Assembly (NCBI GenBank): GCA_964598765.1
Contig: CAZRCZ010000001.1
Location: forward strand, 342,327 to 406,326
Direction of reading: 5' to 3'
Source: an uncultured Candidatus Sumerlaeota bacterium
Lineage (GTDB): Bacteria > Sumerlaeota > Sumerlaeia > MVZB01 > JAJFLK01
Length of the DNA stretch: 64,000 nucleotides
Both the position numbers and the translations under genes were made by a program. Under the pieces are notes generated by a model. It was not told the origin of the DNA. It ran no database searches and saw nothing but the letters and a program-made list of their open reading frames with translations. This document shows, one piece after another, positions 22,543 to 59,253 of the stretch (its first letter is position 1; each line of letters starts with the position of its first letter).

Positions 22543-23583
22543 TCACACTCTTCGATAGGATGGAAACTCTCCCACCTGAACAAACTTCAATCCGCCGTTG
22601 GCGTCGAGATCGAGGTTGAGGCCGGAGACGCCCGCCGGAAGAAGATCGGGCGATGCGTCGCGTCCGGCGACAAACAGCGCGGTCGAGGCCGCGTCGGCTT
22701 CCATGCAGGTCGCGGCGAAGGCCGACGAACTGAGATACGTGTTAGATCGTTCGCCTGATTGCGGGTTGAACTTGTCCATCCGTTCCGGCCTGATTTTGAA
22801 GTCGGAGAAATCATAGTTGCCCGACGTGGCGATGGCCTGATTGGCCAGCTCAAAAATCGCGCAGACTCCCGCGCGGGTCGGGTCCTGCAAACCGACTTTC
22901 CAACCGGGCGCGTCGGTCGGACAGCCATGCACGTAGAGGTCGCCGCCGGCCTCGACGATGGCGTTGGCGATTCCCCATTTGTCGCGCAGGACGGCGATGG
23001 CGCGATCCACGGCGTAGCCTTTGGCGATGCCGCCAAGATCAAAACCCATTCCCTTGCGTTGCAATCCCAACTGACGCCCCTCGATCCGAATTTGGCGGTA
23101 ATCCACGAGTTCGCGCGCCTCGGCGATCGTGTCCGGAATGTCGTCGGCCTCGGGATGCAATCCGCCAGCCTTGAGCAAGGGAAGCGCGGTGATGTCGAAC
23201 AGCGCGCCGGATTGTTTCGCCCAGCGCAATCCCGATCGAACGACCTCGATGATGCGGGGATCCACTTCCAACATTTCGCTCCCCGCGACGCGATTGACGC
23301 GCGAGAGGGGTGTGAACCGCCGATGAATGCTCATCAAATCCTCGACGAGTTGGATTTCCGCGATGGCGTCGAGAACGGCCTCGCGCGCCTTGTTCTCCTT
23401 CTCGCCGATGACGACGAGGTGAACGACGGTTCCCATCGCCTGCCATGCCTTGCGGCAATCCTTGTCGGCGACCGACGCCGCCCAGCTTCCTTTCGGGATT
23501 CCCAGCGAGAAAACGGACGATCCGATGCCGACCATGCCAAGTTGCTTCAAAAAATCGCGGCGATCAGGTGATTTGAATGTCAT
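22543..23583 (-). CDS. apbE: FAD:protein FMN transferase (ApbE family), Tat-exported
   Basis: Tat motif RRDFLK at N-terminus; ApbE core (GFDLGGIAKGYAVDRA, TSGNYD). Confidence 0.85.
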   Translation of the reverse strand: MTFKSPDRRDFLKQLGMVGIGSSVFSLGIPKGSWAASVADKDCRKAWQAMGTVVHLVVIGEKENKAREAVLDAIAEIQLVEDLMSIHRRFTPLSRVNRVAGSEMLEVDPRIIEVVRSGLRWAKQSGALFDITALPLLKAGGLHPEADDIPDTIAEARELVDYRQIRIEGRQLGLQRKGMGFDLGGIAKGYAVDRAIAVLRDKWGIANAIVEAGGDLYVHGCPTDAPGWKVGLQDPTRAGVCAIFELANQAIATSGNYDFSDFKIRPERMDKFNPQSGERSNTYLSSSAFAATCMEADAASTALFVAGRDASPDLLPAGVSGLNLDLDANGGLKFVQVGEFPSYRRV

Positions 23584-23615
23584 GTCTTATATCTCCCTAA
23601 ATTCTATGAATACTT

Positions 23616-23709
23616 AAACACAAAGACACAAAGAAGGCACAAAGAATGGTGAGGCCGTGTGTCTTCCTAATCCCTTGTATTCTTTGTGACTCCTTCGTGT
23701 CTTTGTGTA
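23616..23709. repeat. Imperfect palindrome of tandem CACAAAG heptamers (CACAAAG subfamily, copy 1)
   Basis: Arms aaacacaaagacacaaagaaggcacaaagaatg and cattctttgtgactccttcgtgtctttgtgt separated by ~30 nt; shares a 23-nt identical core with 57445-57571. Confidence 0.85.
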
Positions 23710-23715
23710 TAATCT

Positions 23716-25191
23716 TCAAGCGTCGTTTACAATTTTTTCCTGTTTCGAATCCCAACGGACCCGTCTGCCGCGCAGATAGGCTTGATTCGCCATGTGCGCG
23801 ATGACGGCTTCATCGAAGGCCATGTCAATGTTGCAATTCGTTTTCACGTTTCCGCTCCGGACGCACTCGACGAAATTGAGCGCGTGAAGCGCCGTGACGT
23901 TGATCTTCTTGCCGTTGACGATCTCGATGTAAATCGCCTTGCCGAACATCCAATCCAAAGAGCGACTGCTCTTGGCCTTGATCTCCTCCAGACTCTTCAA
24001 ATCCTCCGCGCTCCCGATGTCCACGAACCACTTTTTCTTTTCAAGGTTGTCCAAATAATCGGGACGGTCCGAGTCTTTGTCGAAGATCAACTGCATCCCG
24101 TGGGTCATGTCGAGCGTGGCGTCGTGGCCGAAGAGCGCCCGCTCGCGCGTCTGGCTGTTGGCGAGCGTTCCGGTGTAGGTGACCATGATCTCTTCTTTTT
24201 CATAGTTGAACGTGATTTGGAGAACGTCGGGCGTTTCGCGTCCGTCCTTGTGATAATAAATGCCGCCCGACGCGACCGCCGTGCTCGGGATGCCGAGACC
24301 GGTGATTTGCTGAATCGCGTCCATTTCGTGCGTGAGCAGATCGCCGCATTGCCCCGTGCCGTAGTCCCAGTATTTGCGGAAACGGAAAAAGCGGTCCAAG
24401 TTGAAATCGCGCTTGGGACCTTTGCCCGTGAAGCGCGCCCAATCAATGTTGTCCGGCCCGGCGCCGACGGGAATTTTGTAAATCCAAGCTCCGTTGGCGT
24501 TGTTGCGGTTGGTGTAGGTTTCGATGAGGGTGATTTTGCCGAGCGCGCCCTCGGGACCGATGGAGCCGATGGCTTTCTTGGCCTTGGCCATCGTCGTGCC
24601 GCTTCGGGTCTGGTGGCCGAGTTGGAAAACAACCCCCGCTTGTTTCACGGCGGCGCGATATTCAATGGCGGCCTCGATGGAGTTGGCGAAACTTTTCTCG
24701 GAATAAATGTGTTTTCCGGCCTGCGCGGCGGCGATCCCGACGAGCGAATGATTGTGGTCCGAAGTTCCGATGAAAATCGCGTCCACGTTTTTATCGGCGA
24801 GCAGATCCTCGAAATTGGGATAAACCTTGATGTCCGGCACGGCCCCTTTGGCCCATTCCTGATTTCCTTTGTAGCAATCGCTCATCGCATGGGCGCGGAC
24901 GTTCAGCGGGCGGGGGAGATTCGCGGTCGGGTCTTCCTTCGGCTCGTCCTTCGGAGAAGGATCCTTGGGATTGCTGAATCCGGTGTAGCGCATGTGTTGT
25001 TTGCCGCGCACGCCGACGCCGACGTATCCGAGATTGACTGTGTCGCTCGGTTGCATTTTTTTGATGAACGCCGGAGCCTTTGGTTTTTCCTCCGCGCTCA
25101 TGGCGGCTTGGCCGGCGGAAGCGGCGGTCAAGGCGACGGCGGCGGAAGTTTTCAGAAAATCGCGGCGTTGAAGCATTGCGTCTTCGGACAT
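23716..25191 (-). CDS. Gfo/Idh/MocA-family oxidoreductase, Tat-exported
   Basis: Tat signal MSEDAMLQRRDFLKTSAAVALTAA; Rossmann N-domain. Start at ATG 25191 with GGAGGAGG RBS upstream; ORF-track start 25218 is GTG. Confidence 0.8.
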   Translation of the reverse strand: MSEDAMLQRRDFLKTSAAVALTAASAGQAAMSAEEKPKAPAFIKKMQPSDTVNLGYVGVGVRGKQHMRYTGFSNPKDPSPKDEPKEDPTANLPRPLNVRAHAMSDCYKGNQEWAKGAVPDIKVYPNFEDLLADKNVDAIFIGTSDHNHSLVGIAAAQAGKHIYSEKSFANSIEAAIEYRAAVKQAGVVFQLGHQTRSGTTMAKAKKAIGSIGPEGALGKITLIETYTNRNNANGAWIYKIPVGAGPDNIDWARFTGKGPKRDFNLDRFFRFRKYWDYGTGQCGDLLTHEMDAIQQITGLGIPSTAVASGGIYYHKDGRETPDVLQITFNYEKEEIMVTYTGTLANSQTRERALFGHDATLDMTHGMQLIFDKDSDRPDYLDNLEKKKWFVDIGSAEDLKSLEEIKAKSSRSLDWMFGKAIYIEIVNGKKINVTALHALNFVECVRSGNVKTNCNIDMAFDEAVIAHMANQAYLRGRRVRWDSKQEKIVNDA

Positions 25192-25363
25192 GGAATCCTC
25201 CTCCAAGCTGATAGTCACCGAGCGGACCTTGGTCTCAATTTGATGTTACGGTTCGACGATGACGTTGGCAACGGGAAATTATCCAAGGGAAATTGAACGC
25301 GGATGAACACGCATTGCGCGGATCAAGAATCAATCCGCGCGGTCCGCGCGGAAGGATAATTCA

Positions 25364-31080: not shown

Positions 31081-31180
31081 TCTTCCCATCATTGCTCCTA
31101 CTCTTACTCATTCTCCTTCTCCTGAGAAAAGCATAAACCGCAAGGTGTTGAGAATGAGGAGGAGTAGGAGTATGAGAATG
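31081..31180 (+). repeat. Purine-rich imperfect inverted repeat in leader of M28 peptidase gene
   Basis: ctcctactcttactcattctcc ... gagaatgaggaggagtaggag(tatgagaatgag); the purine-rich arm ends 9 nt before the ATG at 31189. Confidence 0.7.
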
Positions 31181-31188
31181 AGAACGAT

Positions 31189-32938: not shown

Positions 32939-33454
32939 ATGAGCAACGCCCCCACCGCCCCATCTCTCGACGCCGAGACCGGCTGGAAACCCTTCAACCA
33001 CACCGCTTGGCTGGAGCGGCCCAATTATGTCTCCGGCGATCCGGACGGCAACCGGCTCCGCATCCGCTATTATTACCGCGAGTCGGACATGGCGCTGGTC
33101 GGCAAGGCGTGGTTCGGTCCGGGAACCGAGGGTCCTCCCGGCCATGCGCACGGCGGAAGCATGGCCGCGCTCTTGGACGAGGCGATGGGCACGGCCTCGT
33201 GGATTTCCGGCCATCTCGTCCTCGCCGCGAAGATCGAAGTCAATTTCCGCAAGAAACTCCCGCTCGGCACGGTCGTCAAGGTCGAGGCATGGCTGGAAAA
33301 AGTGAATGGGCGGAAGGTTTTCGTCCGGGGCCAATTGATCGGCCTGGACGATCTGATTTATGCGGAAAGCTCCGGTCTCTTCATCAAACTGGAACCCGAG
33401 CAATTCGGCCAGTTGGGGACTTGGATGGTGCGGAGCACGAAGCCGCGGGAGTGA
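32939..33454 (+). CDS. PaaI-family (hotdog-fold) thioesterase
   Basis: GPGTEGPPGHAHGGSMAALLDEAMG motif of 4HBT/PaaI thioesterases. Confidence 0.7.
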   Translation: MSNAPTAPSLDAETGWKPFNHTAWLERPNYVSGDPDGNRLRIRYYYRESDMALVGKAWFGPGTEGPPGHAHGGSMAALLDEAMGTASWISGHLVLAAKIEVNFRKKLPLGTVVKVEAWLEKVNGRKVFVRGQLIGLDDLIYAESSGLFIKLEPEQFGQLGTWMVRSTKPRE

Positions 33455-33461
33455 TTGACGA

Positions 33462-34625
33462 ATGAAACTCAACCCTTACCCTGCCCTCTCTCTCGGAAAG
33501 GGAGAGGGTTTGCATGGGCAAAAATCCACCCGAGCCGCGACCGTGAGGGAGCGCCCAGCCCGCGAAATTCTTGTTTTCGGGCGCTCCCTCACGGTCGCGG
33601 CTCTGATGTTGCAGTTCTTCTTTTTCTTTGCTCGCGCCGCTGAAATCGCGCTCCATCCCGGGCATCACGAAATCACGTTCAAGAACGGCAAGACCGCCCA
33701 AGGGGAAATTCTGGCCGTCGAAGGGGAAAAATTTCGCTTCCAGCCCTACGAGGGGTCCGCGTTTGTCCTTCCGTTGGATCGAATCCAAACCGCCCGTGCG
33801 CTTTCGCCGGCGGAAGGCGTGCTTTTTCAATCGCGCCAGATGGCGGAGAAGGGAAAGCTCGATGAAGCCGTGCGATTATTGACGCGGAGCGCCGGGATGG
33901 AGGGAGGAGCCGCGCTGGAAGGGGAGCTGATGAGGCGGCTGAACGAATTGAATCGCCTGATAAAAGCGTCGCAGAAAAAAGAATTGGCGGAATTCGAGAA
34001 AAAATTCGAGGAATTACTGGACCGCAATCAACTTCACGACGCGCTCGATCTGGCGAGGCAAACGCTCAAGGATCATCCCGACGATCCCGACCTGCTCGGC
34101 GACGCCGCGCTGGCGGAATTTCGGATTCATCGCGGGCAAGGGGGGATCGCGAGCGAGTTTCGCTCGTTCCATTTGGATCGTTTGAAAAAAGCCGATCCGC
34201 AATCGCCAATCCTGCTCGGGATTCAAGCGGAAATGGGGGTCTCGGAGAAGCTTCAGGCCAAATGGGAATCCGACCGTAAGGCGTTCTTGGCGACCGCCTT
34301 GGACGATGCGGCGCGCTTTTACGAGAATTTCCAACTTCAAGAAGCCAAGGACATCCTCGACAAGGCGCTGGCGCTCGATCCGCCCGATGATCTGCTTGGT
34401 CCGCTGAAGGAACTGGCGGCCAAAGTGGACGCCGAAATTGCCGGCGGGTCCAAGGATCAGGCGCTACGGGAACGCGAACGCCTCCGCGCGCTCGAAGAAA
34501 AAACAAAGATGGAAGGGGAGTCGTCGGGCAAATCGCTGAGTGAATCCGAATCCAAGAAACTGGATAAAAAGCGCGCCCGCAGAATTCAGCAACGCGCGAT
34601 TGACCAAAGCCGTGGACCGAGATGA
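33462..34625 (+). CDS. Hypothetical exported coiled-coil / TPR-like protein
   Basis: 387-aa ORF, hydrophobic N-terminal segment, helical repeat-like C-terminus. True start may be ATG 33606 because 33532-33603 forms a perfect hairpin. Confidence 0.4.
   Translation: MKLNPYPALSLGKGEGLHGQKSTRAATVRERPAREILVFGRSLTVAALMLQFFFFFARAAEIALHPGHHEITFKNGKTAQGEILAVEGEKFRFQPYEGSAFVLPLDRIQTARALSPAEGVLFQSRQMAEKGKLDEAVRLLTRSAGMEGGAALEGELMRRLNELNRLIKASQKKELAEFEKKFEELLDRNQLHDALDLARQTLKDHPDDPDLLGDAALAEFRIHRGQGGIASEFRSFHLDRLKKADPQSPILLGIQAEMGVSEKLQAKWESDRKAFLATALDDAARFYENFQLQEAKDILDKALALDPPDDLLGPLKELAAKVDAEIAGGSKDQALRERERLRALEEKTKMEGESSGKSLSESESKKLDKKRARRIQQRAIDQSRGPR
33532..33603. repeat. Perfect 25-bp inverted repeat (hairpin)
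   Basis: gagccgcgaccgtgagggagcgccc ... gggcgctccctcacggtcgcggctc with 22-nt loop; located 78 nt after the PaaI stop. Confidence 0.85.
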
Positions 34626-38582: not shown

Positions 38583-38624
38583 CCACAACCGAGCAGTGAC
38601 CGCACGGTCGCGGCTCGGTTGTGG
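38583..38624 (-). terminator. Hairpin immediately downstream of hemA stop
   Basis: Perfect 12-bp stem ccacaaccgagc / gctcggttgtgg with 18-nt loop, directly after the hemA stop codon. Confidence 0.5.
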
Positions 38625-38629
38625 TTTCA

Positions 38630-39946
38630 TTAATCCCCGCGATGATGATTTTTCAATTCCTGCATCGAAAGATGAAGGAGCCGTTGTTTGAGGCGGTGTT
38701 GCGCGGCGCGGATTTTTTCGCGGGACGATTCGGACAGATCGCGTTCCATGTCCGTTTGGATTTCGTCAAAAACCTCGTCGAAATGTTTTTTCAAACGCTC
38801 CAGCGCCGGGGCGAGCGAAACCGCCTGAAGCTTGGATCGAAATTTTTCGATCTCCTGCTCGATTAACTCCCACGCTTTCTGCGCGGCGGCGGTCCGTTTG
38901 GCTCGATTCTCGGCGATGATTCCTTCGAGATGGCTGATGTCCAAGAGCGTGACGCCGGGGATGGATCCGATGGCGTGGTCCAGAATGCGCGGGACCGCCG
39001 CGTCAATGAGGCAGACCCGGCGATTTTCGGACCCGGGACCGCGAAGGCTCTCGAACATCGCGCGCGTGACAAGAAAATTCGGCGCGAAAGCCGCGCCGAG
39101 AATCAGATCGGCCTGACGGATCGCGGGAGCCATTTGCGGAATCGGCACGATTTCGGCGTTCAGTCCGCGCGCGACCTCCTGAGCCTTTTCCACCGTGCGG
39201 TTCACGATCAGCAACTTGGCGGGACGACGCTCGGCGATGGCTTCGGCGGCGACGCGCCCGACTTTCCCCGCGCCGATGACGACGCAAACTTTTCCCTCGA
39301 ATGATCCAAGAATTTGCTCGGCGCGGAGCGTCGCGGCCTTGGCGACGGAAAGCGTGCCGACGTTCAAATCGGTTTCGGTCCGGATGCGTTTGGAGCATCG
39401 GTTGGCCGCTTCGATGAGACGATGCAAGTTTGCTCCGGCCATGCCCGTCTGTTTGCTCATTTCATACGCCTGCCCGACCTGCGATTTGATCTCGTTTTCG
39501 CCGAGGATCATCGAATCCAATCCGGCCTCGACCGCGAAGAAATGGCGGACGGCTTCGAGGTCTTCATAATTGTAGAGCGGCGGAACGTGATCCGGCTCCA
39601 ATTTCCCTCCAGCGAGCGAGAGAAAAAATTCGCGCAAGGTTTCGATGAAATTTTCCTCCAGCGGACTATAGACGTAAATTTCGGTTCGATTGCAGGTCGA
39701 AAGAACCAAGGCCTCCCCGGCGAGTCCCTCGTTCCGCAGGCGTTCCAGCGTTTGTAGGCATCGTTCCGGCGCGAGCGCGAATTTCTCGCGGACGCCGATG
39801 GCCGCGCGATCTTGGTTCACGCCGCACACAAAAAGGGTCGAGGTGGATGTGGTCGGGACGGAGTGTGTCTCTCGATCCTTCACGCGCAAATCCTCTCCCT
39901 CGCCCGGCTGTATGGACTTCGCGGAATGTTGAGTCGGTCGGGATCT
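38630..39946 (-). CDS. hemA: Glutamyl-tRNA reductase
   Basis: [20 protein letters not shown]...[14 protein letters not shown] and NADPH-binding domain. ATG 39946 overlaps stop of upstream hemY-like gene (ATGA). Confidence 0.9.
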
Positions 39947-46882: not shown

Positions 46883-46957
46883 TTCACCACAGAGACACAG
46901 AGAGGGTGAAAAAATGCGGACTCGCACTTTTCTACTTCTCTGTGTCTGCGTGGTGAA
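46883..46957. repeat. Imperfect palindrome of tandem CACAGAG heptamers (between convergent genes)
   Basis: Arms ttcaccacagagacacagagagg and cttctctgtgtctgcgtggtgaa; loop ~29 nt; sits between the mqn-like stop and the GT4 stop. Confidence 0.85.
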
Positions 46958-48187: not shown

Positions 48188-48281
48188 AACGCAGAGGCGC
48201 GGAGGACGCAGAGATTGAATGAAGGTCTTGTCTCAATTTGAAATACTCTGCGTTTCTCCGCGTTCTCTGCGCCTCTGCGTT
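48188..48281. repeat. Imperfect palindrome of tandem CGCAGAG units
   Basis: Arms aacgcagaggcgcggaggacgcagag and ctctgcgtttctccgcgttctctgcgcctctgcgtt; between MaoC-like stop and GT4 start. Confidence 0.85.
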
Positions 48282-52100: not shown

Positions 52101-53061
52101 CGACGCAATAGACGAGCCGCGCCTTGTCGCCGGCGTCGGAGTTGTTGTCGCCGGTGAAGAGATTGCCGTAGTCGTCAAAGACGAGTTCCTGCGGGTTGCG
52201 GAGTCCGGTGCAGAACGGCTCCAATTGCGAGCCGTCGGGATTGCAACGGAAGACCGCGCCGGTGTCGGGAAGGTCAATGACGCGCCCTTCGGTTTCGATA
52301 TGCGCGCCGCGGTCGCCGATGCTGAAATAAAGTTTGCCGTCGGGGCCTTTGCGCAGACCGTGGAGATCGTGGCCGAGAAAATTAAAGTGGACGCCGTAGC
52401 CCGTGCTGAGCGATTTGCGTTCGTCGGCCTTGCCATCGCCGTCGGTGTCGCGCAGTTTCCAGAGATCCGGGATGCAGGTGTAGTAAATGTCCCCTTGATC
52501 GGCGAGTAATCCCGCGCCGACGCCGTCCTCCGCGTGGTTGAATCCGTCGGCATAAACGACGGCGCGGTCGGCTTTGCCGTCGCCGTCGGTGTCTTCGAGC
52601 AGACGGATGCGCTCGTGCTGTTTGTCGTAGTCCGCGAACGACTCGCCGAGGTTTTTCTTCATCGCGGCGAGCCGATCCGCGACGGTCCGGCTCGCCAGAT
52701 CGTCGTCGAGCCAGAGGCGGTGCGTCCGCATGTCAAGCACGCCGTCATAGAGGCGGAACGTCTCGCCGACGTAAAACCGCCCCTTGTTGTCCAAGCAGAA
52801 ACAGACCGGATTGGCGAGCATCGGCTCGGCGGCGAAAAGCTCGATCTTGAATCCGTCGGCGATTTTGAATTTCTTGATCGCCTTTTCCCCTTCGTCGGAG
52901 GCGGGGTTGATTTGGGGATGATAGGCGGGGTCTTCGGCAAAGGCGAAGGTAAAAAGGGAAAATAAAATCACCACAGAGGCGCAGAGGCACAGAGTAGGGG
53001 CGACCCGTTGAGTCGCCCGCTTTCTTCTCTGTGTCTCTGTGACTCTGTGGTTTTTCTTCAT
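49156..53061 (-). CDS. Large exported protein with beta-propeller 'membrane-bound dehydrogenase'-like domain, HEAT repeats and C-terminal cytochrome-c (CxxCH) domain
   Basis: 1301 aa; N-terminal signal-like segment, HEAT-repeat middle, CQKCH heme-binding motif near C-terminus, acidic Lys/Glu-rich tail. Confidence 0.75.
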   Translation of the reverse strand: MKKNHRVTETQRRKRATQRVAPTLCLCASVVILFSLFTFAFAEDPAYHPQINPASDEGEKAIKKFKIADGFKIELFAAEPMLANPVCFCLDNKGRFYVGETFRLYDGVLDMRTHRLWLDDDLASRTVADRLAAMKKNLGESFADYDKQHERIRLLEDTDGDGKADRAVVYADGFNHAEDGVGAGLLADQGDIYYTCIPDLWKLRDTDGDGKADERKSLSTGYGVHFNFLGHDLHGLRKGPDGKLYFSIGDRGAHIETEGRVIDLPDTGAVFRCNPDGSQLEPFCTGLRNPQELVFDDYGNLFTGDNNSDAGDKARLVYCVEGGDSGWRIGYQWIEKPVQRGPWNGEKIWHLPWKGQAAYIVPPVAHVAAGPAGFAFYPGTGMPERYKDHFFLCDFRGGAGISLIHTFKVQPKGASFEMTDREDFLKGSLVTDVDFGAEGGIYWTDWTEGWDQPHKGRLYHAFDPAVKNDPLVKEAKEILAGNLDRYSDYELGELLAHQDQRVRFEAQYELARRDLRRLQTGRDSDFMLFGTLGTIAFISPQTYSEEFKNSWTSGEYPDAQARALLQLAEKCSRSPWARLHAIWGIGEVLSKLGPKVEPKSEAVAQSPQDKEKEFQFIFSLVVSTLISGNDLKLGPEGEKAAGELLGKGLGEFLSDPRNRGEAVLVECLKDENAEIRAQAIKVLSDIHSVILNSNESHLTELLDLLKDASLRVRFFTAMSLGKIVNPGVPAMPPSEEIKTRYISALAEMLRENNDADPYLRHAGVMGLVGIGDAEALLKHADDESSAVRMGILLALRRMQKPEIARFLKDRDPALVSEAAHAINDVPIADALPELAGMIGQSENILKMADADVVGKPVMLRILNANFRLGGAENAKAIAEFASRSEPPEVVRLEALGELKDWASPSGRDRVIGVWRPLPKRDPETAARALRPILPELLRSAPNKILQACAQLAGQYQVAEAGAPLFALLSDAKKPTEARVEALRALGEFEDPNLAKAVNLARADAADALRNEGNAQLAKLDPAGAASVLATALNGGSILEKQGALATLADLEGAQFDQLLSTWLDSLAAKKVPAEIQLDLLEAAQKHPNDEIKMKLARYQSAISTDDPLGGFRESLFGGNAERGEKIFFEKTEVTCQKCHTVKSKVGGEVGPELPSVGTRKGREYILESILHPNAQIAEGFENVTLTMKDGKEYAGRVLEEEGNQILLEIPVQEEGEEFVEEEDAPKGTEAKKDEKEDEKEKDKNEKWESEATKGPRVTKMTLPKDQIVSRQHNLSSMPEDISENLAKSELRDLVEFISTLK
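52968..53052. repeat. Imperfect palindrome of tandem CACAGAG units (overlaps 5' end of the large dehydrogenase ORF)
   Basis: Arms atcaccacagaggcgcagaggcacagag and ttctctgtgtctctgtgactctgtggtt with an inner gggcgac-ccgttga-gtcgccc hairpin. Confidence 0.85.
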
Positions 53062-54015: not shown

Positions 54016-54031
54016 GTTTATTCCCTTCTTA

Positions 54032-54113
54032 TTCACCACAGAGACGCAGAGGTACAGAGAAATACTTGGACGCTTTTCACTTCTTCTCTGTGTCTCCTTG
54101 CCTCTGTGGTGAA
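54032..54113. repeat. Imperfect palindrome of tandem CACAGAG units
   Basis: Arms ttcaccacagagacgcagaggtacagagaa and ttctctgtgtctccttgcctctgtggtgaa; immediately upstream of the sugar-binding-protein start. Confidence 0.85.
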
Positions 54114-54766
54114 TCATCTTTTACTTTTCGATACCTCCCCACAAACACCACCGGTTCCGCGGTCGCCTTATCACCGTAAATACCGCTCCCCTCAACGCAA
54201 TGCGCATCCCCCTCCACCCACTCGCGGAACGACTCAAGAACGCTCGGCGCGGAGCGGGACCAGAACAAATAATTCCCTTCGATCTTCCCAGTGCGAAAAA
54301 TCACCTCGCCGCCGTTTTTGCGGATGATCTTGCACCGGATCGTTTTCAGTTCGAAGTCCGCGCTGTAGAGCGCGCTCTCGCGTACCGTCTTGCCGGTCTT
54401 GGGATCGGTGATCTCGAAATGCCCCTCCTGCTGAAATTCCTTGTCGGCGAGGACGTGGCGATAATCCTGTCGGACTTTGACCTTGGAGACCGGCTCGCCG
54501 GTGAATTTGTAGGTGGCGAGCTCTCCCTCCCAAACTCCATCCCATGCCTTGAAGGGAGAAGCGACCGATTGCGCCGTCGCGGGAACCGAGAGGGCTTTGA
54601 TGAGCGCCAAGACGCCAAACCCCGAGATCCACAGAAGGAGAACTATGACCAACAGACGCGAAACCCAGAGGGGATAAGCGCGTTCCGATTTGTCTTCAGA
54701 AGATTCCAAGGATTTTTTTCCGTTTCTTGTCAGAGGCGGGCTTCTTTGCGTTGCCGTTTTCCGCAT
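54077..54766 (-). CDS. Hypothetical membrane-anchored protein
   Basis: 229-aa ORF with one N-terminal TM helix; overlaps upstream peptidase gene end and the 54032-54113 repeat; start uncertain. Confidence 0.4.
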   Translation of the reverse strand: MRKTATQRSPPLTRNGKKSLESSEDKSERAYPLWVSRLLVIVLLLWISGFGVLALIKALSVPATAQSVASPFKAWDGVWEGELATYKFTGEPVSKVKVRQDYRHVLADKEFQQEGHFEITDPKTGKTVRESALYSADFELKTIRCKIIRKNGGEVIFRTGKIEGNYLFWSRSAPSVLESFREWVEGDAHCVEGSGIYGDKATAEPVVFVGRYRKVKDDSPQRQGDTEKK

Positions 54767-57371
54767 CGAGTTTCTTCTTCACATCCTCCAAATCCTTCTT
54801 CATCTTTTCATTCTCTTTTTTGAGGTCCATCACTTCGGATCGGAGGTCGCCCAATTCGACGGGAACCTTCTTTACATCGCGCAGGGACTTCATCGCTTCA
54901 ATCGCCGCGCGCCCGGCCGGGTCTTTCTCTCCCGCCGAAGCGAAGGTCTCCACGACGGAAATTGCTTTTGGGTCCTTCAGGGTTCCCAGCGCGGAAATCG
55001 CCGCGATTTGCACGGCGCGCTTTTTGTGGTCCACCCGCGCTGATAAAAATTCGCGCACCGCGTCCTTTTTTTCCTCGTTACGCGCGATGTAGGCGAGAGT
55101 GTCCAGCCCGCGTCCGAATCCCCAAGAGGTGAATTCTTTTTCGCGCTCGGCGAGAACTGTCCTCAGCGGATCAATAAGCGATGGATCATCGAGTGTACGA
55201 ATCGCTCGGATCGAAGCGTCGGCGAGCGCGTTTTTATAGGAACTTGATTTGAGGAATTGAAGAATCAATTGTCGCGCGCCTTCATCCTGATACCGCCCCA
55301 AATTTTCAATCGCCGCCGCAAGAATGTCGGGATTCTTTTCCGAATCAAGCGTCTTTTTCGCCGCCGCAAGGCTTGCGTCCGAATAAAACTGCCCCAAATC
55401 CAAAGCCACTTGTCGTCGAACCCTCGCGTCGGATTGAGCCGTCGAAGTTGCCAGCGCCTCGAATGCCTCCTGCGTGTGGATTTCCCGCAGGGCTTTCGAC
55501 GCCTCAACTCGAACACCGTAAAACGGATCGTTATTCAAAACGGCTTTCAATCGCCCGACGGTCTCCTGATCCTTCTTGGCCTTGAGCAATTCAATTGCCA
55601 CAATCCGTCCCATCACATCGGATTTATCCTCCAGCTGGGCGTTCAACATCTGCGCCGGAGGATTAAACGCAATTTTGCCGAGGATGCCGTATTCGGGATC
55701 AAACCGAACCGTCGCCGGCGCTTCGCTCATCGGAAAATAAAAATCCTGCTCTTTCTCCTTGATCTCGATTTCCCGATCCACCGCGCCCGATTTGGTTTTG
55801 AACCGCACCTTGGTCGGGAGATCAAATAGAAAAACCTTGTCGGAGACCGACTGCGTTTGCTTGACGCTAACTTTCGCCAATTTCTCCGTTTCGCTCCAAC
55901 TGTAACTCACTTCCAATTCCGGGTATCGCGCATGATATACCCACTGATCGAAGAACGAATCGTACGAACGTCCCGACAATTCCTCGACGACGGCGCGAAG
56001 GTCTTCGGTCACGACGTTCCCCAAGGCGTGGCGTTCGAGATACGTCTTGATGCACCGGCGATATAACTGTTCGCCCAACTGAACCCGAAGCATTCTCAAA
56101 ATCCATCCCCCCTTGGGATAGGCGCGAAAGTCGAACTGCTCCATCGAATCCTTGTATTCCCGATAGACAATCGGCTTCGGCGAGTCTTCCCCTGCTCCCA
56201 ACACCTGCTTCGCGTCGTTCCAAAATCCATAGAGCATCGCGTCGTTTCCGTCCTGATGCCCTTCGTAAAGATGCGCGTAAAACGTGGCGAAACCCTCGTT
56301 GAGCCAGATGTGGCTCCAGTCCTTGCAAGTGACGTAATCGCCGAACCACTGATGGGCGAGTTCGTGTGCGACGAGGTTCGTGCTGGAACGGATGTTCTCG
56401 GTCGCGTCGGTGAAAAGGGTCCGGTCGGTCAGGACCGTCAGCGTTGTGTTTTCCATCCCGCCGTGATTGAAGTCGTCCACGACAACCTGATAATACTTCG
56501 TCCAAGGATACGAAACGCCGATTTCGCTCTCATAAAACGCGAGCATGTCGGCGGTGTCGCGGAAAGAATTTTGGGCTTGCGCGATTTGCGACCTCGGCGT
56601 GTAGAACGCAATCGGAACATCTTTGTATTTTCCCTCAACCTTCTCAAAATTACCTGCCGCGAGCGCGATCAGATAATTGGCGTGGGGCTTGTCCTGTGAC
56701 CATCGGACAACCTTGAGTCCCGTCTCGGGCTCGGAAGTTTCGGAAATCATTTTTCCATTGGAGAGGACCGTCATCGTCGGCGGGACGTGGCCGATCACCT
56801 CGGAGGTGAATTTTTGGTTCGGATAATCCGGACAAGGAAACCAATGCCGCGCCTCCTGTGTTTCTCCTTGCGTCCAGCAGTGAACGTCCTCTTCCTTGTA
56901 GCCCATCTCGGGCGTGCGGAAATAAAGACCCTCCTTCGGCTCGGCGCGATGGGCGAACGTGACCGTCGTCTCCGCGCCCGGCGTGATCGGCTCGGCGAAC
57001 GTCACGATCACTTCCTCGTTCGTCACCTGCCAGCCGCCGATTTTTGCGGTGGATTCAACCGAAGAAATCGTCAGATCAACGGCGTTCAACCGCAACTCGC
57101 GCAACGATTTGGCGATCGGCGCGAAGCGGATCGTCGTTTTGCCAGAGACGCTCCGCGTCTTGAAATCCGGCGTCACATCGAGAATGAAATGACGAATTTC
57201 AATCTGGCGATCCGGCGCGTATTGGCGCGATCCCACCGAAGTCGTCGCAAAACCGGATTTATCGCATCGGATTTCCGTTTCAGTTCCCTCCGAGACTGCA
57301 ACGGATAAAATTCCCGAAGTGAATATCCCCATGGCAATTTGCAGAATTTTCCAACGATTCATGGACACCAT
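54696..57371 (-). CDS. pepN: M1-family zinc aminopeptidase (aminopeptidase N-like) with C-terminal HEAT repeats
   Basis: HELAHQWFGD (HEXXH) and WLNEGFATF (downstream Glu ligand); signal peptide from ATG 57371. Confidence 0.85.
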   Translation of the reverse strand: MVSMNRWKILQIAMGIFTSGILSVAVSEGTETEIRCDKSGFATTSVGSRQYAPDRQIEIRHFILDVTPDFKTRSVSGKTTIRFAPIAKSLRELRLNAVDLTISSVESTAKIGGWQVTNEEVIVTFAEPITPGAETTVTFAHRAEPKEGLYFRTPEMGYKEEDVHCWTQGETQEARHWFPCPDYPNQKFTSEVIGHVPPTMTVLSNGKMISETSEPETGLKVVRWSQDKPHANYLIALAAGNFEKVEGKYKDVPIAFYTPRSQIAQAQNSFRDTADMLAFYESEIGVSYPWTKYYQVVVDDFNHGGMENTTLTVLTDRTLFTDATENIRSSTNLVAHELAHQWFGDYVTCKDWSHIWLNEGFATFYAHLYEGHQDGNDAMLYGFWNDAKQVLGAGEDSPKPIVYREYKDSMEQFDFRAYPKGGWILRMLRVQLGEQLYRRCIKTYLERHALGNVVTEDLRAVVEELSGRSYDSFFDQWVYHARYPELEVSYSWSETEKLAKVSVKQTQSVSDKVFLFDLPTKVRFKTKSGAVDREIEIKEKEQDFYFPMSEAPATVRFDPEYGILGKIAFNPPAQMLNAQLEDKSDVMGRIVAIELLKAKKDQETVGRLKAVLNNDPFYGVRVEASKALREIHTQEAFEALATSTAQSDARVRRQVALDLGQFYSDASLAAAKKTLDSEKNPDILAAAIENLGRYQDEGARQLILQFLKSSSYKNALADASIRAIRTLDDPSLIDPLRTVLAEREKEFTSWGFGRGLDTLAYIARNEEKKDAVREFLSARVDHKKRAVQIAAISALGTLKDPKAISVVETFASAGEKDPAGRAAIEAMKSLRDVKKVPVELGDLRSEVMDLKKENEKMKKDLEDVKKKLDAENGNAKKPASDKKRKKILGIF

Positions 57372-57444
57372 CCCTCTCTCACGCTTTAATTGCTCTGGAA
57401 TCGTGCAGAAAATCTCTGAAATCCGCAAGGGAGTTGGCAGAGGG

Positions 57445-57571
57445 ATTAAACACAAAGACACAAAGAAGGCGCAAAGGTCACAAAGAATGAAGGGATTCCG
57501 CGAATGAAAATCAGAGGCGGATGTTATTCCTTCGTGTCCTTCGTGCCTTCTTTGTGTCTTTGTGTTTAATC
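57445..57571. repeat. Imperfect palindrome of tandem CACAAAG heptamers (CACAAAG subfamily, copy 2)
   Basis: Arms gattaaacacaaagacacaaagaaggcgcaaaggtcacaaagaatgaagg and ccttcgtgtccttcgtgccttctttgtgtctttgtgtttaatc. Confidence 0.85.
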
Positions 57572-57584
57572 TTCTCCCGCCGAA

Positions 57585-59229
57585 TCACCAGCTTCCCCGC
57601 GCGATCGGCATGTGCCGCCCATAGCCGAACGCCTTGCCGGTGACCTTCAGTCCGGTCGGCATTTGCTGGCGCTTGTATTCGTTGCGGTCAATCATTCGGA
57701 CCACCCGCTGGACAAGCTCCTTGTTGCCTCGGCGGGCAACGATCTCTTGGAGGCTGACACGTTGCTCCACGTAATCCGCGATGATCGGATCGAGGAGGTC
57801 GTAGGGGGGAAGCGAATCGGTATCGAGTTGGTTGGGACGCAATTCTGCCGACGGGGGTTTCTCGATACTGTTTTTCGGGATGCGCTCTTTCTCGCGGTTG
57901 ACCCAACGCGAGAGCGAATAAACCCGCGTCTTCAAGACGTCCGAGAGAACCGCCAGCCCACCGCTCATGTCGCCGTAGAGTGTGCAGTAGCCCGTTGCCA
58001 ATTCCGATTTGTTTCCTGTGGTCAGCACCAGCCAGCCAAATTTGTTGGAGATCGTCATGAGGAAATTGCCGCGGATCCGCGCCTGCAAATTTTCTTCGGC
58101 GAGTCCGAACGGCGCGCCCTTGAAAATTTCATTCAGCGATTTCAACGCCGACTCAAAGACGGATTGAATCGGCAAGAGATGAAATTCGATTCCCAAATTC
58201 TTCGCCAGTTGTTTCGCATCGGTGCGGCTGTGCTCCGAACTGAACTGCGACGGCATGGCGACGCCGCAGACGTTTTCCGGTCCCAAGGCGTCGGCGGCGA
58301 TCACCGCCGTCAGCGCCGAATCAATCCCGCCGGAAAGTCCGATCACGACCTTCTTGAAACCGCATTTCCCGACGTAATCGCGCACACCGAGCGTCAATGC
58401 CCTGTAAATTTCTTCGTTCGAGTCTATTTCCGCAAACGTCCCATGTCCGACCGAATTGGAATCTATCCCCACGACGCTCAGGTCTTCCTGAAAAGAGGGA
58501 GATTGATGAAGGACCTTGCCCTCTATGCCCCACGCCTCGCTCCGCCCGTCAAAAATCAGATTGTCGTTTCCGCCGACCAGATTGACGAACACTAGCGGAA
58601 TTTTGTAGCGGGTCGTCGCCAGCGAATACATTTCCGCGCGGATTTTCGGTTTGCCAAGACAATAGGGCGAAGCCGAAATGTTGATCATCAAATCCGGCTT
58701 TTGTTCGGCGAGCGTTTGCACCGGATCAACGGGGTAAATGCGATTGCGCCAATAGAGTCGGTCGTTCCAGAAATCCTCGCAGATCGTCAGCGCGATGTGA
58801 AGCCCGCGAAACTCGGCGATTTGAACCGATGGAGCCGGTTGAAAATGCCGCGCCTCGTCGAAAACGTCATAGGTCGGAAGAAGTGTTTTGAAATGACGCG
58901 ATACGATTTTTCCCCGATCCAACACGGCGGCGGCGTTGTAAAGTCCTTTTCCATCTCCTTCGGCTCGCCGCTCGACGTAACCGATGATTGCGCCCGGTTT
59001 GCCTTCTCCCCGCGTCGCCTCCGCCAATTCCTCCAGCGCGCGGCGATTGGCGTCAATGAACGAAGGATGCTCAAGCAAATCCTTGGGCGGATAACCGGTG
59101 AGCGTAAGTTCGGGAAACACGACAATTTCCGCGCCTTGCTTTCCCGCGCGATCCATCGCGTCGAGGATTTTCCGTTTGTTCTCCTGAACGGCTCCAACCG
59201 TGGTGTTGATTTGTGCCAACGCGATCCGC
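57585..59229 (-). CDS. nadE: Glutamine-dependent NAD+ synthetase
   Basis: N-terminal nitrilase-like domain (LRIALAQINTTVG, VVFPELTLTGY) and C-terminal NAD-synthetase domain (VVIGLSGGIDSALTAVIA). Start chosen at TTG 59229 (AAGGA upstream); the longer ORF-track form translates the hexamer repeat as KSKSKSKK. Confidence 0.85.
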
Positions 59230-59253
59230 AATTTTTCCTTGCTCCATGCCCTT

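Follow-up and report, generated by a model that had tools for sequence, protein, structure and literature searches.

The stretch of DNA analysed here (the window), 64,000 nucleotides (nt) of contig CAZRCZ010000001.1 from an uncultured Candidatus Sumerlaeota bacterium, contains two intergenic palindromes, element 1 and element 2, which probably belong to a palindromic repeat that is dispersed and non-autonomous, of the kind represented by repetitive extragenic palindromes (REPs), their hairpin-forming doublets (REPINs) and miniature inverted-repeat transposable elements (MITEs). Both contain the 23-nt core AAACACAAAGACACAAAGAAGGC, present exactly at 23616-23638 and 57448-57470 on the plus strand and at 57545-57567 on the minus strand; in 100 dinucleotide-preserving shuffles no match to it was found, even with up to three mismatches permitted. 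Element 1 is an imperfect palindrome with arms of 34 nt that are 88% complementary and separated by a gap of 31 nt, and in element 2 the arms of 42 nt, 90% complementary, enclose a gap of 44 nt. Pairwise alignment relates the two elements in both relative orientations, element 2 having one additional unit in each arm and a different interior. When folded as RNA, each forms a single long hairpin whichever strand is read (-39 to -81 kcal/mol, z from -5.7 to -12.8), and none of 200 shuffles folded as stably. A first-pass annotation of the sequence had described the two loci as a near-identical pair with matching inverted arms, located between same-strand genes, close behind the preceding gene and 30-110 nt before the next one. 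All of this is borne out, except that the pair is not a unique one.

Six hairpins of one architecture are present in the window, every one in a gap between genes. Their 5' arm is composed of tandem 8-nt units (NCRCARAG), followed by a loop or an inner stem and then by a mirrored 3' arm (CTYTGYG). The four further hairpins of this design rank within the top seven of an unbiased inverted-repeat search of the window; in them CACAGAG or CGCAGAG units replace CACAAAG, and several carry a small GC-rich hairpin at the tip. The arms of the window hairpins, 27-42 nt long and 81-93% complementary, constitute terminal inverted repeats, and a profile built from the arms of the class matches exactly the 12 arms of the six hairpins and nothing else in the whole window. 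The distance from a stop codon to the start of the hairpin is 3-36 nt. Five of the six are interspersed in an 11-kb series of minus-strand genes with unrelated functions, namely nadE, the genes of an M1 peptidase, a sugar-binding protein and a DUF7133/HEAT/cytochrome c protein together with an unknown open reading frame (ORF), and a GT4 glycosyltransferase gene; at the end of the run a hairpin occupies the 82-nt gap between the GT4 gene and a convergent MqnC-like gene.

The same class of hairpin is found far outside the window. A 19-mer taken from the core, CACAAAGACACAAAGAAGG, occurs at 104 loci in species-representative genomes (596 Gb), where about 4 would be expected by chance, as estimated from the size of the collection. 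These loci span at least eight phyla, and nearly all of them are hairpins of the octamer-armed type; the carriers belong to the Acidobacteriota, Bacteroidota, Thermodesulfobacteriota, Alpha- and Gammaproteobacteria, Planctomycetota, Chlamydiota, Chloroflexota, WOR-3 and others, and include the cultured isolates Flavobacterium tibetense YH5, F. soli DSM 19725 and Sphingomonas psychrolutea CGMCC 1.10106. A single Acidobacteria metagenome-assembled genome (MAG) supplies 16 of the loci. Among 73 hairpins the arms hold two to five units, spaced by 8 nt in 81% of cases; CACAAAG is the most frequent unit, followed by CACGAAG, CGCAAAG, CACCAAG, CACTAAG, CACGGAG, CGCAGAG and CACAGAG; the general heptamer is C-R-C-N-R-A-G, with positions C1, C3, A6 and G7 nearly invariant. 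The outer end follows the consensus TT.AA[AC]|CAC across phyla. The arm with CAC..AG comes first and that with CT..GTG second in 73 cases, and the order is reversed in 15, about half of which (loci L045, L075 and L078) are junctions between tandem neighbours or tandem gene copies. In one of these, a Parachlamydiaceae MAG (L075, 3760-6010), hairpins with the CT..GTG arm first and a 46-nt loop lie between tandem paralogous genes of about 230 amino acids without a Pfam match, so that every gene can equally be described as bracketed by inward-pointing octamer arms. The four-unit module of element 2, irregularly spaced as [unit]A[unit]AAGG[unit]NN[unit], is common to 17 Bacteroidota loci, and in the 5' arm of element 2 the 34 nt CACAAAGACACAAAGAAGGCGCAAAGGTCACAAA are identical to the module of one Flavobacteriales locus. 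A 25-mer scan of metagenomes returned three loci, none of them from the window organism.

In the loci examined, the gaps that carry hairpins are convergent in 22 cases, co-directional in 31 and divergent in 5, ORF calls having been filtered by codon-position composition. The hairpins often lie no more than 1-40 nt from the stop codon or codons, and often fill the entire stop-to-stop gap. Operon-like settings also occur, as in Endozoicomonas, where five hairpins lie within an 8-kb mannose/lipopolysaccharide (sugar-nucleotide) cluster. It is also worth mentioning that the trpB-trpA gap holds an element at the same position in three Flavobacterium species (L026, L087 and L034), with the 5' arm nearly identical in all three and the 3' arm decayed through C/T transitions in two of them.

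Several observations indicate that members of this class are gained, lost and inserted. Copies of one genome have loop and inner-stem sequence in common, which argues for copying rather than convergence. The GFO-ApbE synteny around element 1 is retained in a relative of the window organism (52% protein identity), in which the 79-nt gap contains no such hairpin, so the element is not conserved at the one orthologous position that was testable; at the site of element 2 the relatives, at 68-71% identity, lack the nadE-M1 synteny. The density of the class is lineage-specific, with six hairpins in the 64 kb of the window versus none in about 33 kb from three relatives of the organism. In the Acidobacteria MAG (L059) all 145 nt between the stop codon of a VWA gene and that of its convergent neighbour form one hairpin; in an 84% relative the two genes are about 18 nt apart with no element, in an 81% relative a palindrome with a 38-bp stem and no octamers occupies the site, its arm homologous to the outer stem of the hairpin, and in a 99% relative the contig terminates within the element. 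Furthermore, in a metagenome contig the ortholog of another copy is two units shorter in just one of its arms, which is a polymorphism of the slippage type.

A probable insertion was detected within a gene. In manC of an Endozoicomonas MAG (L033, 3098-3180; NZ_CANMAO010000052.1) an octamer hairpin with CACAGAG/CACGGAG units, the interior of which resembles that of its intergenic siblings, lies inside the coding sequence with the frame kept. It encodes approximately 36-46 extra residues, located after the nucleotidyl-transferase core and before the FVEKPD motif, a place where the solved structures 2qh5 and 2x5s are contiguous, and, judged by this comparison, it is probably an in-frame insertion. 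It is the sole such case seen, and the window holds no in-frame genic copy. The possible mobility suggested in the first-pass annotation fits the further copies in the window, the occurrence of the class in many genomes, the presence and absence among relatives, the polymorphism in unit number and this probable insertion into an ORF; the target-site duplications mentioned there were not seen. Of the two conditions that the annotation named for a refutation, the absence of additional copies does not hold for the class, and the absence of orthologous conservation does hold in the one relative that was testable.

No direct target-site duplication was seen at the borders of the copies inspected; instead, the flanks tend to be complementary. 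Copy-specific flanks complementary over at least 8 nt accompany 29% of the hairpins versus 0.8% in a control in which flanks of different hairpins were paired, and such flanks reach 27 nt in the Acidobacteria MAG, many copies sitting inside copy-specific outer stems. At the window copies the outward complementary extension is 2-7 nt only. The complementary flanks and the Acidobacteria VWA site together suggest either that the elements insert at the apex of existing hairpins or that palindromes grow outwards by intramolecular template switching. In Desulfobacterales the octamer arms surround interiors of 80-130 nt that hold other short-period hairpins, which points to nesting.

Two sets of loci illustrate these arrangements further. 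Comparison with a 99%-identical protein (P0054) shows a frameshift close to the 3' end of the VWA gene in L059 (1767-2903; Acidobacteria gp5 AA63). Once the frame is corrected, the TGA stop of this gene directly adjoins the outer stem of the hairpin, and the TAG stop of the convergent neighbour falls within the outer stem on the other side. In L113 (3590-3700; JGI Ga0679455_0018962) the stop of the VWA gene is immediately followed by a perfect palindrome that has no octamers and a stem of about 38 bp; the arm of this palindrome (GTAGCCC...TTTTGCGGCT) and the outer stem of the L059 octamer hairpin, at the orthologous site, are homologous. In the Desulfobacterales/Thermodesulfobacteriota loci L016, L056, L069, L105, L106 and L044 the arm ends are conserved (GTTCAGCCAC...GTGGCTGAAC) and the interiors contain repeat hairpins of the types TTAGGGAT/ATCCCTCA, ATTGGTT/AACCAAT and GAGCGCTTCGCTTGAGGA..., from which it appears that palindromes armed with tandem repeats may be more general than the CACAAAG type.

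Several features suggest that the hairpins are DNA palindromes rather than a structured RNA selected on one strand. There is no Rfam match at the gathering threshold in the window or in 10 carrier loci, the only matches being sub-threshold ones to generic miRNA-precursor hairpins. The sense strand does not fold better than the other (window 2 vs 3; loci 11 vs 20), the stem mismatches are symmetric transitions (67 A.C and 60 G.T), and no U-tract follows the stem (the first 12 nt past the hairpin have a T fraction of 0.33). Taken together, these features argue against a selected strand-specific RNA structure and fit a DNA palindrome created nearly perfect and decaying later. The one feature that could be functional is the fixed purine-first order of the arms.

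The mechanism proposed for the repeat is as follows. New copies would arise by copy-and-insert without target duplication, most plausibly through a single-stranded hairpin intermediate handled by a trans-acting enzyme or by template switching during replication. Insertions would be tolerated chiefly at the 3' ends of genes and in existing hairpins, after which the arms would decay through transitions and their lengths shift through slippage. Transcription from either strand would yield an RNA duplex of 30-40 bp with a pyrimidine/U-rich 3' arm, expected to attenuate read-through, to protect the 3' end of the upstream mRNA and to be a substrate of RNase III; these effects are argued from general knowledge of REPs and of long double-stranded RNA. 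By analogy, the element probably attenuates read-through and stabilises the upstream mRNA, and we infer a role as a transcript-end or intercistronic hairpin. Any such function would be a by-product or an exaptation and not the cause of the resemblance between the copies.

Several points weigh against this dispersed-repeat view of the two loci. The copy count for the organism covers the 64-kb window. No RAYT-like ORF (REP-associated tyrosine transposase) was found among all ORFs of the window with E. coli RayT as the phmmer query, and no mobilising gene was found in the window or in the loci examined. No direct insertion was observed in the lineage of the window, because its nearest relatives share no more than 52-71% protein identity. 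The manC case relies on distant solved homologues rather than on a close insertion-free allele, and the identity across phyla of a short, low-complexity grammar could partly be convergence.

The same RayT search over about 0.8 Mb of loci returned three Y1-like ORFs, none of them flanked by octamer arms. One, in a Bacteroidetes MAG (L077, 5228-5824), is a RAYT-like Y1 transposase ORF with different REP hairpins of its own on both sides (CCTAACAGG-N9-CCTGTTAGG), a REP/RAYT unit of the conventional type at a distance of 3 kb from an octamer arm; the others lie kilobases from the arms. An IS5-like gene beside an arm (L068) was considered as an autonomous parent and rejected, there being no matching second arm, and no autonomous element with the same termini occurs in the loci examined. 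The idea that GxxExxY or small ORFs following the Bacteroidota module are cargo genes was abandoned, as it had one case only and was inconsistent. A phage or plasmid vector was likewise discarded, since a single, chance-level match was obtained among viral contigs and none among plasmids. The viral match (L118, 4600-4850; IMG/VR UViG_3300013138_000109) is not the usual hairpin but a direct tandem array of purine-type arms only, with a period of about 80 nt (CTCAC[AG]CAAAG three times, ...GTGTGAG). Integron attC sites were rejected too: the ends TTAAAC/GTTTAA do not, by inspection, fit RYYYAAC, there is no recombinase among the annotated genes of the window, and the copies are scattered among housekeeping genes.

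Of the alternative explanations, the one that survives best, though it remains unlikely, is that the hairpins are bidirectional factor-independent terminators evolved in place, the arms acting as A- and U-tracts extended on either side of an inner GC hairpin and their similarity being a convergence favoured by RNA polymerase. Each CTTTGTG unit at 8-nt spacing would match the elemental pause consensus G-10...T-3 G-2 Y-1 G+1. This would account for the purine-rich 5' and pyrimidine-rich 3' order that is constant on both strands, the 3' arm being pyrimidine/U-rich whichever strand is transcribed, as in bidirectional terminators; for the preference for convergent over divergent gaps; for the position of the window hairpins just past stop codons, separating unrelated same-strand genes; and for the inner GC hairpins of several copies. 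It would also agree with the absence of enrichment of consensus intrinsic terminators at 44-60 kb (25 vs 25.7 expected); the only element with such a site, in its inner hairpin, is that at 52970. On the other hand, the sharing of loop and inner-stem sequence within a genome, the absence of elements at the orthologous sites of relatives, the copy within an ORF and those within operons (trpB-trpA), and the lineage-specific density do not fit terminators, nor do the missing U-tract and the missing sense-strand folding advantage. Some copies, moreover, stand 15-30 nt before the next start codon, which leaves no room for a promoter.

A rather more improbable explanation is a MITE derived from an insertion sequence with a DDE transposase, the octamer arrays being multiple transposase-binding sites in foldback-like terminal inverted repeats. 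The long terminal inverted repeats made of inward-pointing tandem sub-repeats, the outer end conserved across phyla, the variable interiors of 80-130 nt in Desulfobacterales, which might be regarded as cargo, and the patchy, high-copy distribution all speak for it. Opposed to it are the flanks, which are complementary and have no direct duplication at any inspected copy, the lack of a full-length element that ends in the same way and of a second arm at the IS5-like gene, and the viral and plasmid searches.

It is very improbable that the hairpins are structural DNA sites for a host protein, such as gyrase or IHF at bacterial interspersed mosaic elements (BIMEs) or a nucleoid protein, that reads CAC/GTG steps at 8-bp spacing in double-stranded or cruciform DNA. 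The symmetry of the strands in folding and in mismatch spectrum, the strict periodicity and the near-invariant unit positions would suit such a site, but there is no candidate protein, a spacing of 8 bp does not keep step with the turns of the DNA helix, copies differ freely in the number and sequence of their units, and elements come and go among close relatives.

The reading of the two elements as cis-regulatory leaders or operators of the downstream exported-protein genes (apbE and M1 peptidase), a link implied in the first-pass annotation, is largely refuted: both copies do lie 30-80 nt upstream of the starts of genes whose products have export signals or are probably exported, and the purine-rich arm includes a Shine-Dalgarno-like GAAGGAG, but there is no element upstream of apbE in the syntenic relative, other copies precede the cytoplasmic GT4 glycosyltransferase gene, fill a convergent gap or split trpB and trpA in Flavobacterium, the class lies between arbitrary genes in many phyla, and Rfam contains no matching family.

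The dispersed palindromic repeat preferred here can be compared with several known systems. Families of intergenic palindromic repeats (REPs, BIMEs and MITEs) are common and are usually specific to a species, genus or lineage; the octamer grammar, and even the 34-nt module, in contrast, recurs across phyla. The octamer hairpins resemble REPs and REPINs in being extragenic, high-copy, hairpin-forming inverted doublets of approximately 70-130 nt without target-site duplication, enriched at gene 3' ends and in convergent gaps, found also in tandem clusters (L045 and L078) and differing in location between close relatives; a terminating or stabilising effect in the 3' untranslated region, drawn from the analogy, is probable as well. 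They differ in that their arms are tandem NCRCNRAG units without internal dyad symmetry, not self-palindromic, in that the outer end is TT.AA[AC]CAC with no 5' tag of the GTAG type (GTAG/CGTC), and in that no octamer-flanked RAYT gene occurs in the window or the loci examined, the RAYT-like gene of L077 carrying another REP. REPINs have been described as hairpin-forming mobile doublets (Bertels & Rainey 2011, PMC3116915), and REPs as partial terminators and mRNA stabilisers (bioRxiv 10.64898/2026.03.23.713779). The long inverted termini composed of short tandem repeats, the variable interior, the lack of coding capacity and the patchy high copy number are shared with MITEs and foldback elements, from which the octamer hairpins are set apart by having, in the loci examined, neither target-site duplications nor an autonomous partner with the same ends. 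Compared with intrinsic bidirectional terminators, they likewise stand just past a stop codon, have a purine/A-rich 5' flank and a pyrimidine/U-rich 3' flank and serve convergent genes in common, but their stems measure 30-40 bp instead of 5-12 bp, no U-tract lies beyond the stem, and they are multi-copy, with common loops, and gained or lost between relatives.

Rickettsia palindromic elements (RPEs), which can sit in frame inside protein-coding genes as well as between genes, are known only from Rickettsia. A tentative parallel to them is the one case of manC in the Endozoicomonas MAG, where an octamer hairpin was probably inserted in frame; the sequences are unrelated, and most octamer copies are intergenic. 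RPEs were reportedly described by Ogata et al. in 2000. The small dispersed repeats (SDRs) of Nostoc offer another parallel, as very small hairpin repeats nested in other hairpins or repeats with no known mechanism of mobilisation. SDRs measure 21-27 nt and are known only from cyanobacteria. They are not known to possess octamer-periodic arms. Elhai et al. are said to have reported them in 2008. Diagnostic strings of the class were absent from the full-text literature searched, and keyword queries returned only general papers on REPs and terminators.

It may tentatively be considered, although the odds are rather against it, that all these hairpins, in at least eight phyla, form one family of miniature elements that spreads horizontally, or arise from one host process that is conserved, and that their mechanism is an undescribed one: insertion at hairpin apices with no duplication of the target, involving neither RAYT nor a DDE transposase. 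The purine-first order and the spacing of CT..GYG by 8 nt could reflect an interaction with a universal machine, for example RNA polymerase pausing or the replisome. The unusual aspects of the class are that different phyla (Acidobacteriota, Bacteroidota, Planctomycetota, Chlamydiota, Proteobacteria, Chloroflexota and the deep-branching genome of the window) have one simple grammar in common, down to the 34-nt module, and that copies are nested in hairpins. If the class is one family, it would represent an unrecognised, widely shared route for moving very small pieces of DNA, hairpins at gene ends being the preferred sites; if it is convergent, it would amount to a general rule for transcript-end hairpins in bacteria without canonical terminators. 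In practical terms, the elements break short-read assemblies, can extend or interrupt ORFs and draw the start codons of gene callers into them; Logan short-read contigs of the window organism begin or end within both element 1 and element 2.

Table 1. Octamer-armed hairpins of the window and the genes adjoining elements 1 and 2 (positions in the 64,000-nt window).
Feature	Position	Strand	Description
Element 1, 5' arm	23614..23647		TTAAA + CACAAAG-A-CACAAAG-AAGG-CACAAAG-AAT
Element 1, loop	23648..23678		unique interior, 31 nt
Element 1, 3' arm	23679..23712		mirrors the 5' arm, 88% complementary; mismatches are transitions
Hairpin, CACAGAG units	46883..46957		in the 82-nt gap between the convergent MqnC-like gene (+, ends 46876) and the GT4 gene (-, ends 46959)
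Hairpin, CGCAGAG/CGCGGAG units	48188..48281		between two minus-strand genes
Hairpin, CACAGAG/CGCAGAG units	52970..53051		inner GC hairpin GGGCGAC..GTCGCCC; 13 nt past the stop of the sugar-binding protein gene
Hairpin, CACAGAG/CGCAGAG/TACAGAG units	54031..54114		about 15 nt upstream of the putative ATG of the periplasmic sugar-binding protein gene
Element 2, 5' arm	57444..57485		GATTAAA + four units
Element 2, interior	57486..57529		contains a small inner hairpin TCCGC...GCGGA
Element 2, 3' arm	57530..57571		complementarity to the 5' arm 90%; contains the minus-strand copy of the core
ApbE-family gene	22543..23583	-	downstream of element 1
GFO/IDH/MocA oxidoreductase gene	23716..25218	-	upstream of element 1; TAT signal
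M1 peptidase/HEAT-repeat gene	54696..57371	-	downstream of element 2; start ATG at 57371 or 57362
NAD+ synthase gene (NadE)	~57585..59231	-	upstream of element 2; true protein of 548 aa

The genes adjoining the two elements are all on the minus strand, in the order GFO/IDH/MocA, element 1, ApbE and NadE, element 2, M1 peptidase. Element 1 begins 3 nt after the upstream stop codon and ends 30 nt before the downstream start; for element 2 the corresponding distances are 13 nt and about 75-80 nt. The best named relatives of NadE are from Candidatus Sumerlaeota (57-61%). Several starts and stops of the longest ORFs in the window fall in hairpin arms (e.g. 57461, 53061 and 54117), so gene callers are likely to mis-set boundaries there. 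A 229-aa ORF without a Pfam match (54077-54766, minus strand) shares 71 nt with the end of the M1 peptidase gene and has its stop inside the 54031-54114 hairpin.

Intergenic palindromes of other kinds are also present, bringing the total in the 64 kb to nine, of three kinds. The palindrome at 31095-31187 has arms with a 6-nt period (CTCCTA CTCTTA CTCATT CTC... / GAGAAT GAGGAG GAGTAG GAGTAT GAGAAT GAGAAC) and lies in the divergent gap between an FKBP gene (minus strand) and an M28 peptidase gene (plus strand); its purine arm is GGAGG-rich and ends a few nt short of the peptidase ATG. A second palindrome family, GC-rich and with CCGAGCCGCGACCGTG in common, is represented at 33527-33608 and 38583-38624, one copy following the stop at 33454 and the other located between hemA (stop at 38630) and the next minus-strand gene.

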